Of a stretch of DNA of 64,000 bases, positions 5,069 through 51,456 are shown piece by piece (the stretch's first letter is position 1; every line of letters begins with the position of its first letter). The DNA is taken from the IMG/VR virus record IMGVR_UViG_3300028591_000108, positions 32,001 to 96,000 of that record; one strand, written 5' to 3'. The stretch comes from a virus (lineage: Duplodnaviria; Caudoviricetes). The position numbers and the translations under genes were made by a program. Below the pieces are notes generated by a model. That model saw only the letters and a program-made list of their open reading frames with translations. It was not told the DNA's origin and searched no databases.

Positions 5069-5215
5069 ATGAAGTATCGTATTAGGAGCATCCAGTGGCC
5101 GTTAATGATTATTGAAGATGGTTTTTCTTCCGAACAGGCCGCCGCGAGTTGGGCCGAAGATAATATGTATCTTGGTGGCATTTGGTCCGGCGGTTGGATT
5201 ATTGAAAGTTATTAA
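5069..5215 (+). CDS. Hypothetical cassette protein
   Basis: RBS AAGGAGG; context. Confidence 0.7.
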   Translation: MKYRIRSIQWPLMIIEDGFSSEQAAASWAEDNMYLGGIWSGGWIIESY

Positions 5216-5340
5216 TTATAACGGCCTTCGGGCCGTTATAATTTTATTCTCGTTTTTAGATGTAATACATCTAAAAAAATCTCTTGCAACTATCCCATTT
5301 CTATGCTATACTTGTACCATCAAAGAAGGAGGTAACACCA

Positions 5341-11511: not shown

Positions 11512-11832
11512 ATGAAGAAGACCACCATGAACACCATCCTGTCTCTGATTGCCACCATCGACACTCCCGAAGCCGAAGCTGTTCGGACTGAGCTGACCGC
11601 TGAACTGAACCGCGGAAAGGCCAAAGCTGAAGCCAATCGGACTATCTATGGCGAGATTCACGATGCCGTGATCAAAGTTCTGAAGTCCGCTATTGCTCCC
11701 GTGACTGCCCAGGAGCTGGCTGACGAGACGGGGTATGCCAAGGGCAAGGTCGTCTACGGTCTGACCAATTACTGGACTGATGAAGTCGAGAAGATCGAAG
11801 GCAAGACTAACACTTACGTTCTCAAGGCGTAA
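11512..11832 (+). CDS. Winged-helix DNA-binding protein (paralog 1)
   Basis: PVTAQELADETGYAKGKVVYGL...EGKTNTY; close to 15302 and 17051. Confidence 0.7.
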   Translation: MKKTTMNTILSLIATIDTPEAEAVRTELTAELNRGKAKAEANRTIYGEIHDAVIKVLKSAIAPVTAQELADETGYAKGKVVYGLTNYWTDEVEKIEGKTNTYVLKA

Positions 11833-15046: not shown

Positions 15047-15301
15047 GCCAGAGTTTCTCTATTAGATGTATTACATCTAAAACCAATTGTTGACTTTTTC
15101 TAAAATTGTGATATACTATAATTGTTCCGAGGGGAAAGGGAATCCTCCTGCTGGGAGATGAAGCACCTAATGTGAGATAGGGTGCGGGGACTCACAAAGT
15201 TGAAAAAACTTTCCCTTTCCCCTTGACAAAATCCCAAATCTATGATATACTAATCACGAACAAAGGGAAGGACACCCTACAAACCAGAAAGGAATTTGAC
15301 G

Positions 15302-15622
15302 ATGAAGAAAGTTACTATCGAGACTCTGGTTGCCTATCTGAACGGTGAGACTGTGACCAATCTGGATGAAATCAAGGCTGAACTGGAAGCCGAACTGAAC
15401 AAGGGCAAAGCGCAGAAGGAAGCTAATCAGGCGATTTACGCCGAGATTCATGATGCCGTGATCGAAGCCCTGGCTTCTGCGGAAAATCCCGTTACCGCTC
15501 AGGAACTGGCCGATGAGACTGGTTACCCGAAGGGTAAGATCGTATATGGTCTGTCTCACTACTGGAACGAAGAGATCAAGAAGATCGAGGGTAAGGTTAA
15601 TTCCTACGCTCTCAAGGCGTAA
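15302..15622 (+). CDS. Winged-helix DNA-binding protein (paralog 2)
   Basis: IYAEIHDAVI...PVTAQELADETGYPKGKIVYGL. Confidence 0.7.
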   Translation: MKKVTIETLVAYLNGETVTNLDEIKAELEAELNKGKAQKEANQAIYAEIHDAVIEALASAENPVTAQELADETGYPKGKIVYGLSHYWNEEIKKIEGKVNSYALKA

Positions 15623-15688
15623 ACTTTCCCTCCCACGAGGATTTCTAAGGGCTTTCAGTGTGGCTAAACAACATAAGCCCTTCTATAT

Positions 15689-15799
15689 GGGAAGTGCAAG
15701 CTACTTCAGGGTTGTAGCCACCAAGTTTCGGAAGAAACAGAGTGAATGAGTGGAAACGCGATGACGCCCACTGGAGTTCAAATCTCCCACTTTCCACCA
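15689..15799 (+). ncRNA. tRNA-like RNA (8-bp acceptor/4-bp T-stem, G3-U70, encoded CCA, no anticodon loop)
   Basis: GGGAAGTG pairs with CACTTTCC-A-CCA; T-arm GGAG-TTCAAAT-CTCC; D-like arm GCTAC-TTCAGGGTT-GTAGC; central GTTTC-GGAA-GAAAC. Confidence 0.55.
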
Positions 15800-16014
15800 G
15801 AAGAGTTTTCGGGAGTACAGTTCTCTTGGGCGAAAAACAAAACTGCTCTCTGACGGGTATCAAAGATACCGCCAACCGCCTTCGGGCGGTATTTTTTTTC
15901 AAATAAATTTAGATGTATTACATCTAAATATATCTCTTGCGCTTTTCCCGTAATATGATATACTATTAGCATGAAGTGAAGGAATAACACTATAAAACCA
16001 GAAAGGCAATTAAT

Positions 16015-16767: not shown

Positions 16768-17050
16768 CATATGGGCGCATCTGCGCCCGTATCATATTTA
16801 GATGTAATACATCTAATAGAAACACTTGCGTTTTTCTGAAATTTGAGTATAATAATAATTGTTCCGAGGAGATGAAGGAACAGACCAAGTGCTCAATGGG
16901 TATTATCTGGCCCGAGCGTGTGGACTTCTGCAGTTCGCCACACAAAATTCCCCGAAAAAAATGCTTGACAAAAGCAAAAATCCATGATATAATAACTACG
17001 AAAGATGAAGAGAAGGAAAACTCTTAAAAAACCAGAAAGGAATTTTGAAA

Positions 17051-17377
17051 ATGAAGATCACCACCTACGCCACCGTTTACTCCTTCCTGACTGCTAATGG
17101 TTTCGACAATGCTGAGATTCTCGCTGAGTTCGAGAAGGAACTGAATCGCAACGCTGAAGCGAAGCAGGCGAAGGAAACCCTGTACGCCGAAGCTAAGCCC
17201 ATTGTTCTGGGTGCGATGGACGCTCCTGCCACGATTACCGAGATTTTCGAAGCGGTGAAGGAGACTCTGCCCGATGGCTTCACGAAGGGCAATCTCCAGT
17301 ATGCGGTGACTCGTCTGTGGAAGGACGAGGTTGAAAAGACCGAGGGCAAGGTCAACACCTACGCTCGCAAGACGTAA
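17051..17377 (+). CDS. Winged-helix DNA-binding protein (paralog 3)
   Basis: PATITEIFEAV...FTKGNLQYAVTRLW...EGKVNTY. Confidence 0.65.
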   Translation: MKITTYATVYSFLTANGFDNAEILAEFEKELNRNAEAKQAKETLYAEAKPIVLGAMDAPATITEIFEAVKETLPDGFTKGNLQYAVTRLWKDEVEKTEGKVNTYARKT

Positions 17378-29906: not shown

Positions 29907-30683
29907 ATGGATAAAACCTCACTGGGCGACCGCATGAAAGCCTATGAAAACATCGAGCGGAGATACTTTACTCGGCGCGAGCCCCTCATTATTCGACTGG
30001 ACGGAGTGCATTTCCATAGCTTTACCAAAGGATTCGATCGCCCATTCGACATAAGCTTTCTTACTTGTATGCGTAATACGATGCTGCGCCTATGCGAAAA
30101 TATTATGGGCGCCAAGCTTGCTTACACGCAATCTGATGAAATCACTATCCTTGTCACTGACGATGATACCCTTGAAACCGATGCTTGGTTTGGGAAGAAT
30201 CTACAGAAAATTGTAAGCGTTTCCGCCGCAATGGCTACCAACTTTTTCCACAACGAAATGATGGAAATAGTATACGGAGGTCCGGCTTCTCAGGGTCTGA
30301 ATCATGCCTATGACGAAGAGCGTCTTGCTATTTTTGATGCGCGCACTTTTATTGTGCCGCGTGAGGAAGTTCTTAACGTTTTTGAATGGCGCCAGCAGGA
30401 CTGCACGCGCAATTCTATCCAGTCTGTAGGCCAAGCTTATTTTTCTCATAAAGAACTCGATCATAAATCTTGTAACGATATTCAGAATATGCTTTTTACG
30501 CAAATAAGTATTAATTGGAATAATTATCCACTGAGTCTCAAACGTGGCGTTTGTGCAAAACAAGAACCAACTCTAGTTAATGGAGATGTGTATCGTATGA
30601 AATGGAAACTGGACGAGAATATTCCAATTTTCCATGAACATCCAGACTATATCAATGATATTGTATATCATAAGGAGAAATAA
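29907..30683 (+). CDS. thg1: tRNA(His) guanylyltransferase Thg1-like 3'-5' polymerase
   Basis: IIRLDGVHFHSFT, YTQSDEI, FDAR, WRQQDCTRNSI, KRG motifs. Confidence 0.92.
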   Translation: MDKTSLGDRMKAYENIERRYFTRREPLIIRLDGVHFHSFTKGFDRPFDISFLTCMRNTMLRLCENIMGAKLAYTQSDEITILVTDDDTLETDAWFGKNLQKIVSVSAAMATNFFHNEMMEIVYGGPASQGLNHAYDEERLAIFDARTFIVPREEVLNVFEWRQQDCTRNSIQSVGQAYFSHKELDHKSCNDIQNMLFTQISINWNNYPLSLKRGVCAKQEPTLVNGDVYRMKWKLDENIPIFHEHPDYINDIVYHKEK

Positions 30684-42192: not shown

Positions 42193-45100
42193 ATGGCTTA
42201 GAACTTATAGTTATATGATCGCAATAATTGGACAGACGGAATGCCAATTACAGCTACACGTATGAATACTATAGAAGAAGGTGTATCTATAAATCGTGCA
42301 GCTTTAATGACAATAGATGGCGATGTAGACGTCATGAAGGACCAAATTAATTAGCGTCCAACAACTGCAGGTATGCAGGCATATGTAGATTAGCAAGTTG
42401 GTTATGGCACGCAGGCATATAGAGAAGTCGTAGACGCGCATGACGGCGATGTATATTCTTCTCTTACCGACAGATTTATCACAGATGAAACCAACATTGC
42501 TGCTATCAAGGATATGCTAGGAACTAAAACTAATCCTGTTACAGAGGAATCTGAACCAGCATATTCTGGCACCAGCACTGTATACAATGCCGTCGATGCT
42601 GTAACAACAACTGCGAATCTTGTAAATGCAGAAGTGCGAAATGCAAGAGTTGATAGCGTTGCTAATAAAAACTATGATTCTTTATATTTACACCTAAGAA
42701 ACATAGATATTAGTATTAATAACGCGCAAGCAGACATTCTAACTATTGAAAATGCAGCAGGTGAAAATCAAACATTAGCTTCTCGTATGGCATAGTTAAC
42801 ACAATTGCAAGATGAAGTAGACGCAGCACGTCGTGCAGTGGCAGAAGGCGAAGATCCGGATACATTAGCAAAACGATTTGCATCTATTGATTCTCAGATT
42901 CAAGCAATACAAAACGATATTAATAGTTTGAGCAGTAATAAAGTAAATATTAGTGATATTGTTAATAATTTAACTAGCAATAACACTAATAAGCCACTAA
43001 GCGCCAATATGGGTAAAGCTTTACGTGATTTAGTTGGCGGAGTTTATGATGAAAACAATACTGTTACTGATGCTATTGACGCCGCAGAAGCAAGCGCGAA
43101 AGCGTATACAGATGAGAAAAATACTTATTATAATGTTGCAGAAATTAATGCGGCACATCGTAATCTAGGCATAGACCCAGAGACGGAAGAAGTAATAGTT
43201 GATTCTCTCAATAAGCGGTTCCGTGATGCTGAAGAAGATATTACTGCACTTCAAACTGAGGTTACTACGGCGCATGCAGACAACGCAAGTTTAAATACTC
43301 GCTTAACTACTCTTGAATCTGATGCGACGGCGATTGCGGCAGACCTGCACACAATTGCAACTGAGCTAGCAATGCTAGATGATTAGGATGCAATTAAAGA
43401 TACCAATACTAAGATTGATAACTTAGAAGCCGATATTCAAAGTTTTGCGCGCGAACTAGCTATGGCGCGTGATGAAAATGGGCGTTTGGTTGAGACAAGT
43501 ACACGCGTTGATACATTAGAAACGCAAGCTTCTAATATGGCAAATGCAATTTCTCATGCGGCCGAAGGTAATGACCCAGGTGGCCTAACTGAGCGTATTG
43601 TTGCATTAGAAACTGAACCTAAGTCTGCCACAGAAGTTGTTGCTGAATTGCCGTAGACTGGAGATGCAACTAAAGACTATTTAGTTGGCCCAAATGAGGA
43701 TGACAAATACTTCTATTATAAATGGATTGCAAATGAATGGCAACTGATTAGTGGTGATTCTGGCAGCGGAAGTTCTTCTGCGCTAATTGTTGCTGCATTA
43801 CCAGAGCCTTCTGCGGCGGATGTAAATATTGATTACTATGTAGGCAATAGTACCGATGGTTATACACACTATCGTTTTATTGCGGCATCAGCAGATGAAT
43901 CCGAAGGACATTTTATTAGAATTCTACCTAATAATTTAATTGGAGATATCTCTGTAGATCAATATGGCGGTCTTGTGGCTCATACAATTAATGATGATCA
44001 AACCAATTTATTAAGTAATTTTTATGCATTAAATGGTGTAACTTATACTCCTAATTATGATCCAAATGATGCTTCTGTATTAGTATCTCAGACGCTACAA
44101 TTTACAGGCACCGACGGACAACAGCTCGATCCAATTGTTATAGTTGGTGGCGGTGGAGGTAGTGGCACTGTATATAGCGTTAATATTGAATCTTCTACTC
44201 CTGCATCTCGTAGTATTCCATCTAATAGTACTGATCCTGTAACAATTCAAGCTAAAGTAGTAATGAAACAAGGAAATGAATTATTAGGCTCTGGAGCAAC
44301 TGCAGAAGGTTAGATTCAGTATCGTTAGTATGGAGCTTCTACTTGGTAGAATGGAGATCGTATTGAAGTAGATGCAGATGATCCGGCTATGCGTTATGTC
44401 ATTCCTAACAATACGAATTTTACTGTAGATGTAACCAAATATCTAGTAGAAGATAAAACAATGCAAATTCGTCTAGCTATTACTGCTTATCCCGGTGGTG
44501 AAGGCACTGAAGTTATTCGTAATCAAACTTTTAGTATTTCTAAAGTTAATATTGCTATTGCTGCCGAGGCATTTGATTATGGTTCTGTTAAGAGTAGTAA
44601 TTTCCAATTCAACTATCGTTGCTTTGGCTCAGGTATTGTAAAAACAGTTCATTTCTTAATTGATAATGAAGATGTAGTAACACCAGTTACAGTACCTGGG
44701 AACGTGCTTAGTTCTACAGTATTACCACAAAATATTCCAATGAATGGAAAAACAAATGGAATGCATACATTCTAGGTTTATTTTGTTACTAATACTGGTT
44801 TAGAATCTAATAGATTAAATTATTTCATACTATATAATACTGATGCTGAACGTCAAGCGCCTCTAATCGGTGCAGCCGCGGAAAATAGTAGTATAGTAGA
44901 TGGTGATGAATTAGTAGTAAATTATTCTGTTAATACAATTGGTAGTGAAACAACTGATAGCGTAGAAATTGAATTATATACTATGGAAGACGGAACTAAA
45001 AAAGTTCATTCCACAACTCTATTAACGAATGTAGATAATAATAAATTAGCAAGTCCTCCTTATCGTACTTTCGATTATCCTAGTTTAAAGAAAGATAATC

Positions 45101-48100
45101 CAACAGATCCAGATCCAGACCCAATTACTGTATATGTTAAATTAACAGCAACTCATAATGGTTTGAGTGATTCTTAGACTATAGCTGTTCAAGTTCGTTA
45201 TTTAAATACTACCTATAATTTACTGCCAGTAACAAATAACTTATTATTTAGTTATAGTGCTTATGGCCGTTCTAACAACAGCGCCAATAAAGATACATTT
45301 ATTTATCCTTTTACCAGTGTTAGTGGCGAAACTATTAATTTTACTGGTACGTTTAATAATTTTAACTGGGCTACTGACGGATATGTTGATGGTGAAAGTC
45401 TTATTATTGGCGGCGGAGCTACTTTAAACATCAATGTTCCTATATTTAATAGTAAATTTAATGATATTAGCATTGAAGAAAATACTAGTATAGGAAAAAT
45501 TACTACAAATGGTCGCACTATTGAAATTGATTATGAAGTACTCTCAACAACCAATTTAGGCGCGACAATCATTGATTGTATGACAACTGGTGCAAGTCCA
45601 AAAGGTTTCAGAGTCACTCCGCAGAACTGTTATTTATTAAATAGTGGTTCTAATATTGATATTGATGAAACAGGCTTTATTAAGAATGAAGAAAATGTGG
45701 CTGCTGCATATTTAAATCCGGGCATGCGCACACACTTAACTTTCGTCATTGAGCCCATGTCTACAGATGGTAGTGATCATCAATCAGTAAATATTTATGT
45801 TAATGGTGAATTTGCTAATGCATGCCCATATAATATAATTGGCAGTGATTTTGATAATAATGCTACGATTACAATTGGAAGCGATACATGCTTAATTAAG
45901 CTTTATAGTATTAAATTATATAATCGTGGCCTCACAGAAGCCCAAGTGTTGCATAATTATGAAGTTGCTCCTGTAGCAACTCGTGACAAACTTATTCGAC
46001 TAGAAGAAAATGATATTTTAAATGATTAGGGCCTAGTAGATTATGAAAGAGCGCGCAGAAAATATACTTGTTTATTATTAACAGGTATGGGAACTGTAAA
46101 TGGACATGCAGTACCAACTATGGCTCCATATAAGGGTTATCCTTCTGTTGTTGGGCGTGAAAAAGATAATGAAATAGTCGGTAAGACTGAATCTGGTTTA
46201 TTATTAACTAAACCAACAACTGAAAATACTGATGGTTATACAGTTGAGTTTGATTTATAGGATAAACTTATTGATCCTAATAATCTATATGGCTATGCTA
46301 GTTCTAATAACGTACAAGGAACATCTTCTTAGAAATTCCCCGTAAAGAACTTAAAAGTATATTTAGCAAAGGGCGACGATAGTAATATAATGGTATTTGA
46401 TGAAAATGAAACTATTTCTGTGAAATAGGTATATAAATATAGCATCAATACCGCCGCGGCAGCAGCATATACAAGTGTACATGGTAGTGAAACATCTTTA
46501 CCAGACTATATTAAAGATTGCGGAGCTAATATTGCTACTATTGTAAAAAATCTAGAAGAAGTGCCCACACAAGCGGAAGTAGTAGATAAAATTGTAGAAT
46601 ACTTAAATAATGAAGATACCGATGTTGGAGCAGCTTACTCTACCTATAGCACTGGCGATGAGTTAATAATTCATCCAATTAAGGCATATAAAAAGAGTAA
46701 AAAGGTTAAATATGCTTTACGTGATAATGGTATCGGTGAAAGTACTTTATGCTGGAAAGCAGATTACATGTCTACTGATCATGCTAATACTTTTAATGCG
46801 AATATCGCTAATACTCTATATAGTGCAGATGATAGATTATCTGATCGTTGGACAGATTAGACTCAATTTACAGTTTATGGCATTAAATGCTTACTATTTC
46901 AGAAAAATGGTGATGGGCAACCTGAATTTGTTGGTGATGGCTGCTTAAATAATGATAAAGGCAATCATGCTACATTTGGTTTAGAGACACCTGGCGATAC
47001 AGATGATAACACTATGTGCCAAAAGTGGGATTTCCGTAATAATACTGGTAGCTTATTATACTTTAAGCATGATGGTTTATTTGAAACTATTGACGGCAAA
47101 CCGGCGATAGCTAGAGAATTAGAGTGTATTTATCCAGATGAAGGCGATTTAGCTGATATTGGAATCACTCCTAATTACAATCATTTTTAGATTCTATCTT
47201 CTTGGTTAGGCAATCGCGCGAATTACTGGTATGAAAGTGATTCCAACAAGAAAGCCGCGAAGAAAAAAATCTTTATTGATGAATTTAGAAACCATTTTAA
47301 CTTTAATCATATTCTTATCTATTATCTATTTATGGAATATACTGCTTTATGCGATAACCGTGTAAAGAATATTCACATGAGAACTGATAATGCCGGAGAA
47401 GAAAGAATTAAGATTGCTAATAGTGATGAATATTATTTTGAAGGTAATAGCAATCCAAATTCTGGCCCTTGGACAATTGCTACTAACCTAGAAACTCGTA
47501 CAATGCAAGAACCTATTATGGACGAAAATGGTGATTACCAATTTGATGAAAATGGTAATATGCAATTAGGTAATGTATCTCACGTATTCGTTAAAGATAG
47601 TATTATTAATAGCATTGACTGGGAGCAAGGTGAGGGACATTCTAATTTTGCCATTTGGGCGCCAGTACTCTACGACCTTGACTCTTGTTTTAGCGCGGAT
47701 AACGTAGGATATCTAAAGATTCGTTATGATGCTGATTGGGATTATAGTCTATATAATAAATTGAAGTTTGCAGGCTATGACTCTATCTTATGGTTACAAG
47801 TAGAAGATTGTTTCCAAGATGATTTAAAAGCCACGGCTAAGAGACTATATAATCGTGTCGTTGGTCTAAATTATTCTACATTCTATCGTCAATAGATTAC
47901 TGATAATTTGGCTTCTTTATGTCCTGCAATTACTAACTAGGATATGATTCTTAAATATGATAAACCTTGGACTGAAGGATTCTTAGATTATAGTAAAAAT
48001 CCACCAGCACCAAGTACTGATGAATATAAATATCTACAACGCGGTACTCGTACCGGTCAAAAAGCTATTTTTATGAAACAGCGTTCTTTGTTCTTAGCTA

Positions 48101-51100
48101 GTAAATATGATGGAAATGAATTTACTCAAGATAAAATTACTTTCCGCGCAGGTACGCAAGTAAATCACGAAAATTCAATTCTAACTTTAACTGCTAATTA
48201 GAAATTATATCCTGGCGCATAGTTTGGTGATGTCAATGATACCACTAAAGTAACTCGTCGTGCAAATAAAGTATATGATTCTACATCAGGGGAATGGGTA
48301 GATATTAATGAAGAAGATTGGGTACCTGAATTTACACCATGTCAAATACAGCATTCTGGTAACATGAATAATACTGATGGTATTGAAATTTATGGCGCAT
48401 CTGTATTAAACGATATTGGTGATATTTCTCGTTTCCATCCTTGGCAGGTAAAAGTTGGTAATGCAGTTAACTTAAAGAAATTAATCATTGGTTCTGCCAC
48501 CTCAGGCTATTCCAATACATCTACAGATAAAATTAATGGACTAGATACTTGTGTATTATTGGAAGAAATTAATGTATGCAACCTAAAGAATTTAAGTTCA
48601 TTGCAATTGAGTAATAATGGTTTTATCAAAAAGGTCTATGCAACTGGTAGTGGTTTAAGAACTCTTGCGCTACCACGCGGCGGCGTGCTTGATACAATTG
48701 CATACGGCGAAAATACTACTGATATTACAATTATTAATTAGAGTCGCTTAATTAACTTTAGCTATGAAAATTCTAGCACTAATAATTATGGAAATGTAAC
48801 TCGTCTTTGGATTGAAAATACTCCTAATGTACCAGTACGTGAAATTATTACTGCAAGATTAACTTCTCGTTCTTCAGAGGATCAAGGTCTAAGGGCCGGT
48901 GGTTTACGTATTGTAGGTATTGATCTTGACTTAGGAGAAGATCAAAATTTCTTATAGTTAATTACAAGTGATTTAGTATTAGGAACTTATTTAACTGCAC
49001 AAGGCGGACATGTCGAAGGTAATAATCAACCACCATATATTAGTGGTAAGATTCATATTAGTTCAATTAGAGCTTCTTTATTAGCAAAAGTAAATGAAAT
49101 GTATCCAGATTTAATAGTATATAATACTATAGATGCAGAAGGAAAACCAAATAATAATGTTGAAACAGAATTTACTATTACATATCTAAATTATGATATG
49201 GACGAAGAACATCCTCTCTATGTTGATTATCGCTTAAGTAGTGAAAATGTAATTGACCCTGCCTATGATACAAATCCAATTACTAATACTTATTATATTG
49301 ATATTCCAACTAAGCCTGAAGATGCACAGTATAAATATAAATTTGGTACTCCAGATAGTAATAGTCCACGTGGATTTAAGCGCTTTAGCGGCTGGGTAGT
49401 AAAGGGTACTACTACTAATCCTACTAGTAGCACTAAACCAAATGGTAATATTACTTATGTTGCTTATTTCCCAACTTTGGAAAAATAGCAATATACTGTT
49501 AGATGGCTTAGCGACCGCAATGGAACAGAATTGCGTAGTGTATCTGTTCAGTATAATGATGATTTATCTGCAGAGGCTTCTCCTATAGAATTAGGAACAC
49601 TTACTCGCACAATGATTGATGGTAATATTAAAAAAGTTTTCTCTGGATGGAGTCGTCCATTAGGAAAAATTACTTCTAATGTTGATGTATACGCATTGTG
49701 GGAGACAAGTACTATTAATGATACTACACCATCTATTACTATGGAGACTCTTACTGCTGCAGATGTTTATGCTCTATCTTTAGTAGATAGCGCCCATAAA
49801 GCCGAATTGCTTGATGATAAATTAGGCACCCCAATTTTCATTAAAATGGGACAAGACTTTAATTATACTGAAGGCGTATAGATGGTTAATTTACTTGGTA
49901 ATAGCGATGAAATTCTGTTAGATGGTACTATTGATACAGTACATGTTTATAATGATATTAAACCGTTAGCTATAAATTCTGACTGGACTATTGCTATTGA
50001 CTATAAATTACTAATGGATAGCGCACAATCCTTTAATGATGGCTTAGAATTTGTATTAGCATCTTGCTATCAAAATGCGAATTCTTCTATTCAAGGATTT
50101 AAGATTTCATTAGTACATAGCGAAACCTCTTCTCAACATGCAATATAGGTTACTTGGGGTACCGCGTCTACCACCATTGATTATGCGCTTACTTCTACTA
50201 CAGATGATTAGTACTTTACATCATATAGAAATGTTGTTGTCCTTAGTCATAATTCTAATCTACCAAATGCATTACGTGTCTCATATGTTCTTCCAAATAC
50301 AGCAAATAGCCGAGCTCCAATTAATGCTAATTTTGGCTTATATGTCAATAATGAGCGTTTAACTTGGAATAGTAATGTACCTATTTCAGCACCATTAATT
50401 ATTGGCGGCAACTACGCAGGAACTACTACGACTATCGAAGAGCAAAGCTATTCTCGTCGTCCCGCATAGGGTGTTGTATATTGGGCCAAATTCTGGGATA
50501 CAGATTTAGGCGAAGCCAATTGCACTAAATTAGCAAGTTGGATACATGAAACAGTACCATTCTTACTAAGCGGTTATAATAACGGTAGTACAGGTTCAAC
50601 AGAACAAATTTATACTAGTAGCGCGCTTTCATTCGTTGCTGCACAAGGTATGGGAGATAGATATTTTTACGCTCGCCAGGCAGGAACTCCGGATGACAAT
50701 AACATGTATGGCTGGCATATGTCAGTTATGCGCTAGATTTGTAATAACTTAATTTATGCAGGAATGCCAGAAAATTATAAATCAATCATTCGTTCTACAC
50801 CTGTTAATTTCAATAGACGTAGCAGTGAAACAGGACAAACAATTTATGAGCCTGTAAATGATTATCTGTTCTTACCTGCTTATCGTGAGGTAGAGGAGGG
50901 CACAGTTAGTGGTACTTCTGAAGTAAATAGCCGTTGGTTAAATCCATGGCATTGGATGGCCCCAGCGAATTTAACAGTATTACAAGCATCTACTGGTTCA
51001 GAAGATATACTAGAGTCTAAAGCTGCCTCATCTATCGCATTTTTTCGTTATCGTTTCTCTGGTATGTATATATCTGAAAACAACCGTATCTTTAATACAA

Positions 51101-51456
51101 AGTCTGACCCTGCTGCTCAAATTGGATTACGGTATCGTGCAAGTGATGGCACAACTACCGCTGTTACAATTTAGCCCGGAGATGTATGGGTTAATCTATA
51201 GACTTCAACTGCTTTCATTTATATCTCAAATGAAGATATATCACGCGGAGTAACTTATGATCTACTTACTACGGGTGGAGCTTGGAAACGCGCGAAAGTA
51301 TGGCAATTAAGAACATACAATATGACCGTTCCTACTCCAACTATTAATGAAAACTTCTTTATGCATGTAGATTATAATGGAGCGATTAACACTAATCCAA
51401 CCGTCAGCACTCTTGATTCAGAAGGACGTCTATTATGTCCAGAATTTACAGTCTAA
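42193..51456 (+). CDS. Giant (~3087 aa) virion-associated protein with LamG-like and CotH-kinase-like regions (TAG=Gln)
   Basis: All frame-1 fragments from 42514 to 51174 are in one frame joined by TAG; motifs QGTSS*KFPVKN, CWKADYMS, NNDK, DNRVKN, YDLDSC; terminator at 51462. Confidence 0.8.

Follow-up and report, generated by a model that had tools for sequence, protein, structure and literature searches.

Comparative sequence evidence identifies positions 15689-15799 of the plus strand as a genuine and conserved phage gene for a predicted tRNA-shaped RNA that has no anticodon. The window, as the term is used here, is the whole stretch of 64,000 nucleotides that was analysed, which makes up bases 32001-96000 of a 141.9-kb IMG/VR record judged to be 78% complete. 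The gene is 111 bases long and runs from G1 through an encoded CCA, it scores 104.6 bits with the covariance model R1, and 25 distinct relatives of about 103-119 nt, each of full length, have been found, all of them in phage contigs.

The fold and its conservation

An earlier note on this DNA had listed an acceptor of eight pairs, a discriminator A, an encoded CCA and T, D-like, central and variable arms, and all of these lie at the coordinates given in Table 1, with the minimum free energy fold of the window copy taking the same shape (-35.9 kcal/mol, z = -2.4). As 3 of 200 shuffled sequences fold equally well at this value of z, the fold of the single sequence is weak evidence when taken alone and it is the comparative support that is decisive. 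The acceptor, D and T arms are present as in a canonical tRNA, together with the elbow of GG in the D loop and UUC in the T loop. The acceptor and T helices would be stacked into a branch of 12 bp, divided 8/4, and the elbow between the D loop and T loop would be of the canonical kind.

Table 1. The element, its parts and the signals around it, numbered from the first base of the window.
Feature	Position	Strand	Remarks
Strong promoter	15090-15117		First of two sigma-70-type promoters, after a terminator and a palindrome
Likely promoter of the element's transcript	15223-15251	+	TTGACA and TATACT, 17 nt apart, TG upstream; matches the consensus at 11 of 12 positions
Small winged-helix gene (f0 family)	15302-15622	+	106 aa
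Hairpin upstream of the element	15647-15682	+	AAGGGC/GCCCTT stem
Acceptor stem, 5' strand GGGAAGTG	15689-15696	+	8 bp with 15788-15795; G.U is the third pair
D arm	15700-15718	+	5-bp stem, 9-nt loop containing TCAGGG; conserved loop
Central arm, where a tRNA has its anticodon arm	15719-15744	+	3 bp, internal loop, 5 bp, GGAA tetraloop
Variable domain/arm	15749-15772	+	One nested hairpin in the window copy
T arm	15773-15787	+	4-bp stem, loop TTCAAAT
Acceptor stem, 3' strand CACTTTCC	15788-15795	+	Followed by A73 at 15796 and CCA at 15797-15799
Intrinsic terminator closing the unit	15875-15899	+	Predicted from sequence

Across the alignment of 25 rows, 98.8% of the cells at the 23 modelled pairs are paired, and this falls to 40-57% when the partners are slid by 1-3 columns. 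Fifteen of the 23 pairs have changed on both sides, with covariation in every helix, and none of 500 shuffles of the alignment matches the observed values for pairing and covariation. All 8 acceptor pairs are standard in every member, with pairs 4, 5 and 7 covarying (at pair 4, 14 members have G-C, 10 have A-U and one has G.U, pair 5 occurs as four pair types, and at pair 7 there are 16 members with U-A and 9 with C-G). Compensatory changes are found in four of the five pairs of the D stem and in three of the four pairs of the T stem, which is 100% paired, and both helices of the central arm covary. The earlier note had held that a lack of structural conservation among relatives would make this a decayed tRNA; the compensatory changes among the 25 homologues that were looked at indicate that the element is a conserved, structured gene and not a decaying tRNA remnant.

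The division of the branch into 8/4 is favoured over 7/5 because G8-C is invariant and the 7/5 alternative forces a U.C or A.C pair at the base of the T stem, which is the case for all 21 rows shown in full, the four later members being left aside. In the same 21 rows the 7-nt anticodon loop on a 5-bp stem of a canonical tRNA is absent and the central arm is capped by a 4-nt loop, which is of the GNRA type except for CAAA in two rows and ACAA in one. With a GNRA tetraloop at the tip of the arm meant for the anticodon, this RNA has no means of reading a codon. The internal loop of this arm is GGTAA opposite GAT in most members, which may resemble the UAA/GAN motif. The variable domain differs in layout between subgroups, with one stem around a large loop in the window copy, L193, L003, L076, L125 and L119 and two hairpins in most of the others, yet a loop of the GCAAA type recurs across members, and when the window copy is compared by eye with L193, L076, L125 and L119 covariation can be seen in the outer stem, which is outside the counted model.

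It is apparent that existing search tools pass over the family. The earlier note had looked to tRNA and RNA-family finders for recognition of the element, and neither ARAGORN nor the Rfam models report it. ARAGORN calls neither a tRNA nor a tmRNA in the window, and at the locus its intron, low-threshold, tmRNA and mitochondrial modes give either no call or an implausible one that spans the region, whilst in Rfam 15 nothing matches at gathering scores, nor does any model of the tRNA clan at E values up to 10. The note was right that the element is too short for a tmRNA, and a conserved tag frame is absent as well, with a frame read from the conserved GCA of the variable loop reaching a stop only in L077 and L002 and running off the 3' end in the other members read. 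The Rfam tmRNA model (RF00023) gives 15.5 bits for the best member against a cut-off of 47, only the T arm being aligned locally, and the same model gives the tRNA-Ala genes of a candidate host MAG 24-29 bits, which is above the element. A tag peptide or an anticodon within the GCAAA motif of the variable loop was considered and rejected, as neither the loop size nor the reading frame is conserved, and so was an archaeal-type bulge-helix-bulge intron in the central arm, for which the geometry is wrong.

The family and its genomic setting

The members come from exact-pattern scans of IMG/VR, one metagenome scan (6 members) and one scan of GTDB genomes (1 member), each filtered with R1. One of the patterns left the acceptor stem free but demanded the CCA, another used only the D loop and central arm as anchors and added three members (L344, L345 and L346). 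A first D-loop pattern returned mostly tRNA-Pro genes starting TCAGGGT and only three true members, and most other matches of the metagenome and GTDB scans were tmRNA 3' ends, or ordinary tRNA-Tyr and tRNA-Ala genes with a chance GGG upstream.

The phages that carry the element are large, uncultured and of the ruminant gut, with several contigs of about 150-183 kb, and the sequencing runs that hold the phage of the window are likewise ruminant-gut samples. Exactly one copy is present per record in all ten phage records that were searched whole. The sole member in the GTDB species genomes, L271 (JAJZQHA010000068.1-type record, 5187-5305), lies on a phage-like contig of 24 kb that was binned into an Acutalibacteraceae MAG; as this contig encodes the same phage gene families, the MAG is only a weak hint as to the host, which would be of the Oscillospirales. 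BLAST of the locus against GenBank phages gave no match, Rfam is without the family, and a search of full-text literature did not find it described. These RNAs are a candidate new RNA family, with sequences enough for a covariance model.

Within the window the element lies in an early region of small gene cassettes that reads in the standard code. No promoter-like site was found between the promoter at 15223-15251 and the element, and the f0 winged-helix gene is probably co-transcribed with it. In many relatives too a G+C-rich hairpin is found 5-10 nt upstream of the element, which may serve as a protected 3' end of the mRNA after cleavage by RNase P. Other members are arranged differently: seven have a promoter of their own (TTGACA, 17 nt, TGnTATAAT) that ends 11 nt before G1, with the next promoter beginning about 20 nt past the 3' end of the element, and an eighth, L346, has a weaker one with TTGACT and TATACT. 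A terminator of the same type as in the window begins 0 or 2 nt after the CCA in seven other members. In L002, G002 and L345 the element is found within a tRNA array on the same strand, beginning in L345 8 nt after a tRNA-Arg and ending 3 nt before a tRNA-Glu, and ending in G002 7 nt before a tRNA-Tyr.

In 7 of 10 phage records the gene immediately before the element is of the f0 type, its stop codon lying 14-90 nt ahead of the element. The f0 genes adjacent to the element are not one clade, in a tree that is poorly resolved, and their proteins resemble ordinary phage DNA-binding regulators of the MarR/IclR type; on these grounds a specific partnership of the element with the upstream winged-helix protein was rejected. 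Three winged-helix paralogues lie within 6 kb of one another in the window (11512-11829, 15302-15619 and 17045-17374), with two to four copies in each of the relatives, and it is likely that they regulate the early promoters flanked by palindromes.

A contig from run X7, belonging to a phage about 93% identical, joins 15681 to 15800 via ten unrelated letters and is missing 15682-15799, so that the right-hand edge of the deletion is exactly at the CCA end, and the f0 gene is kept. This relative is without the element, which is therefore a discrete and dispensable module. Direct repeats were considered as the footprint of an insertion and rejected, as the deletion is not bounded by them. A contig of a related phage in run X7 joins the palindromes at 15082 and 15908 (repeated palindrome TTAGATGTATTACATCTAA) and skips the cassette of winged-helix gene and element, giving presence and absence at the level of the cassette at this palindrome, window 15082-15908. 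Between the two promoters of Table 1 there are about 100 nt without an ORF (15118-15222), which could be a small RNA or a leader; within it is AACTTTCCCT, a sequence similar to the element's 3' acceptor strand and found again at 15624-15633. Parts of the early region are represented by contigs from the RNA run X2, none of which lies over the element, and as the result of one RNA run this says nothing either way.

Alanine identity and the closest known RNAs

The pair G3.U70 with A73 is the determinant for alanyl-tRNA synthetase (AlaRS) and is common to tRNA-Ala and tmRNA. To our knowledge alanine is the sole amino acid for which tRNA identity lies wholly in the acceptor stem, a property that tmRNA exploits, and thus an RNA with no anticodon could still be charged with alanine. 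As read from its sequence, the window copy carries G1-C72, G2-C71, G3.U70 and A73. The first two of these pairs are invariant in all members, A73 is found in 24 of 25 and an encoded CCA in 23 of 25. The description of the element as an anticodon-less tRNA mimic with alanine identity extends to the whole conserved family, with the correction that the identity is not absolute, G3.U70 together with A73 being present in 23 of the 25 members, although pairs close by in the stem covary. With the full acceptor identity set in place, host AlaRS should load most copies with alanine.

The exceptions are instructive as to how far this can be taken. L345 has A3-U70 with CAA replacing CCA, and L346 has G3-C70, G4.U69 and G73, and both keep the whole fold; in L344 G3.U70 is kept and CTA replaces CCA. 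Because L345 and L346 are structurally intact without the alanine set, charging cannot be essential in every lineage. From the pattern of conservation it is likely that the RNA is charged with alanine, perhaps not universally, and that selection maintains the alanine marks in most lineages, whilst the RNA can persist without them.

RNAs of this kind are already known, as the tRNA-like domain (TLD) of tmRNA and the tag-less tmRNAs are also tRNA-like RNAs of the alanine type with no anticodon, it is the body that differs here. In the tRNA-like domain of tmRNA the acceptor branch is divided 7/5 and the D region forms no regular stem. Tag-less, 'TLD-only' ('Standard, no CDS') tmRNAs are found in the mycobacteriophage DS6A, in which the tmRNA is reduced to little more than the tRNA-like domain, in jakobid mitochondria and in Mallomonadaceae plastids, and in E. 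coli a molecule similar to that of DS6A is a strong inhibitor of tmRNA, perhaps through titration of SmpB (PMC4131195; PMC11915505). Like the family described here they are small RNAs with G3.U70, A73, CCA and a T arm but no anticodon or message, and DS6A is likewise a phage. In contrast to them, the family has an 8/4 and not a 7/5 branch, a full D stem of 5 bp with 4 covarying pairs, a structured arm capped by a GNRA loop and one or two extra hairpins, with a length of 103-119 nt as against roughly 65-80 nt. R1 has no match in the DS6A genome, and a loose acceptor-stem scan of that genome did not find its TLD-only tmRNA, which is unannotated.

The 8/4 allo-tRNAs share with the family a 12-bp branch split 8/4, a long variable arm and an occurrence in phages and rumen Clostridia, and they can carry G3:U70, in which case they are charged by AlaRS in vivo and insert alanine in E. 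coli (PMC5389517). They keep a 7-nt anticodon loop and decode, however, which the tetraloop-capped arm of the family cannot. Canonical tRNA-Ala (RF00005) has in common with the family the identity set, the GG/UUC elbow, the encoded CCA, the presence in tRNA arrays and tRNA-like transcription units, whereas the family lacks the anticodon loop, divides its branch 8/4 and is longer by about 35-45 nucleotides. A further likeness is to the tRNA-shaped 'enigmatic introns' of Lak megaphages, which are also phage tRNA-like RNAs complete from first base to CCA end (PMC6784885), although inserts of the Lak type are placed within the anticodon loop of a host tRNA gene and have no sequence in common with the family, whose element is free-standing.

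Possible roles in the takeover of host translation

The best explanation, to which we would give about an even chance, is that the element is a genuine phage gene whose product, a tRNA-shaped mimic that does not decode and is in most cases charged with alanine, occupies a host factor which reads tRNAs. Its conservation as a gene, its fold, its promoters and terminators and its identity elements are borne out by the sequences, and its processing, alanylation and target we infer as follows. Transcription would be from sigma-70-type promoters, whether its own, that of a tRNA array or, for the window copy, that of the winged-helix gene before it, and the element would be cut out by the enzymes that mature tRNAs, with RNase P acting at G1 and the 3' end trimmed to the encoded CCA. 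Most copies would then be loaded by host AlaRS, and the mimic would occupy a host factor which recognises the half of a tRNA made up of the acceptor and T arm. As to which factor, our most specific guess is ribosome rescue by tmRNA-SmpB, as TLD-only tmRNA fragments inhibit it; from the analysis we would put this target at about one in five, with a decoy for another factor that reads the acceptor about as likely. Counting against SmpB are the covarying D stem and the 8/4 branch, which are unlike the tmRNA domain, and the score with the tmRNA model, which is below that of tRNA-Ala. Against the best explanation as a whole count the lack of the alanine set in L345 and L346 and the dispensability of the element in the X7 relative.

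It is possible, and we hold it tentatively, that the RNA is instead a decoy or sponge for some other host factor that reads the acceptor end or the elbow of tRNAs, absorbing an attack or titrating the factor without any decoding. Candidates would be a toxin that cuts or modifies the acceptor stems or 3' ends of tRNAs, AlaRS, EF-Tu, the CCA-adding enzyme or RNase P. The strong constraint on the top half of the molecule (acceptor, T and D), the lower half being remodelled, would suit such a decoy, the phage invests in tRNA biology (18 tRNAs, tRNA-shaped inserts and a Thg1-like enzyme), the element would be expressed with early genes from the predicted sigma-70 promoters, and the members that lack G3.U70 fit a role independent of charging. 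No candidate toxin or target was found, however, the Thg1-like gene is inconsistent in being absent from G002, and the keeping of G3.U70 in most members is unexplained unless the target is specific to alanine. The particular decoy roles offered in the earlier note, for anticodon nucleases, T-box or stringent sensing, are weak, as anticodon nucleases, T-box leaders and RelA each read the anticodon or codon pairing, neither of which this RNA can provide; of the guesses in the note, that of an aminoacyl donor is the one left standing.

A further possibility involves the genetic code of these phages. Long frames in the late genes of the window, from about 22800 to 64000, are open only with TAG as a sense codon, and the phage therefore recodes TAG; reading TAG as Q opens frames of 3087, 924, 854 and 640 aa, for example 42193-51456 with 32 TAG codons. 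In the complete relative G002 the number of ORFs of at least 300 aa rises from 24 to 49 with TAG as sense. Further along, the genome of the window's phage has 18 tRNA genes by ARAGORN, of which one is a credible tRNA(CUA) (genome 105503-105588). G000 and G002 each have a tRNA(CUA) and long frames that open only with TAG as sense, and it is from this pair of genomes, which belong to one phage group, that the link to recoding is drawn. Ribosomal pausing at stop codons results in SsrA tagging, and slow decoding at an in-frame TAG could otherwise invite rescue of the ribosome and tagging of phage proteins. It might be proposed that in TAG-recoding phages the alanine-charged mimic blocks or diverts tmRNA-SmpB, such that ribosomes paused at TAG would go without rescue and their proteins without tags, an idea that we regard as rather unlikely. 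No SmpB or RtcB genes were found in five phage records, and for SmpB this counts against the best explanation.

Two other observations on the tRNA biology of this phage can be recorded. A Thg1-like protein (PF04446, 98 bits) is encoded at window 29907-30680(+), it belongs to a family of 3'-5' polymerases that repair the 5' ends of tRNAs, and its gene is also present in the related record G003 and absent from the complete genome G002. The tRNA-Trp gene contains a tRNA-shaped insert (genome 114049-114123) that starts GGGGCG and ends CGCTCC-A-CCA, with G3.U70 and A73. This is a second alanine-marked, non-decoding RNA in the genome, and its sequence is unrelated to the element family.

It is improbable that the element is a cis-acting module for processing and stability, in which RNase P would cut the early transcript, the winged-helix mRNA would gain a 3' hairpin and the released RNA would have no function. 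The frequent f0-type gene close upstream of the element and the G+C-rich hairpin just before G1 in many members would suit such a module, but eight members stand alone with a promoter of their own and three are in tRNA arrays, and the X7 relative keeps its f0 gene without the element. Furthermore, a mere handle for RNase P needs no GNRA arm, conserved variable loop, G3.U70 or encoded CCA.

Still more improbable is a role as the alanine donor for a reaction off the ribosome, the RNA being charged by AlaRS and kept from translation by its missing anticodon. Non-proteinogenic tRNAs are known to feed Fem-type transferases, and in most members the identity set and encoded CCA are combined with an inability to decode, as would be expected of a donor. 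Against this, there is no aminoacyl-tRNA-dependent transferase adjoining the element or among the genes scanned, and two members are without the identity set.

That the RNA is a decoding tRNA of odd layout, with an anticodon GCA in a variable loop UUGCAAA or an intron to be removed from the central arm, is very improbable. The first variable hairpin of L077 and L097 does have a 7-nt UUGCAAA loop that fits the consensus of an anticodon loop, and in the genome of the window's phage there are tRNA genes interrupted by tRNA-shaped inserts, but the loop at this position is 6 to 13 nt in other members and absent in the window copy, removal of the GNRA hairpin leaves inconsistent loops of 6 to 8 nt, and the intron mode of ARAGORN gives nothing credible. 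A functionless, decaying remnant of a tRNA or tmRNA, or a leftover attachment site, is scarcely credible, as it would account for the element being missed by the finders of tRNA and tmRNA and absent from a close relative but not for 25 distinct full-length copies with compensatory changes in every helix, promoters, terminators and no integrase context, and the 15 covarying pairs argue against very recent copies.

Returning to the mimic that occupies a host factor, what is described here is a phage RNA family that would work on the charging principle of tmRNA with a different body, made up of an 8/4 branch, a full D arm, a GNRA arm and extra hairpins, and that goes unseen in searches for tRNAs and tmRNAs and in Rfam. 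If the RNA is charged and acts on rescue, or on another factor that reads tRNAs, it would be a new class of RNA effector in the takeover of translation by phages, and it might help to explain how phages with a recoded stop codon cope with slow decoding of the reassigned codon. Should the SmpB-blocking reading be true, this would be a takeover of translation quality control that is based on RNA.
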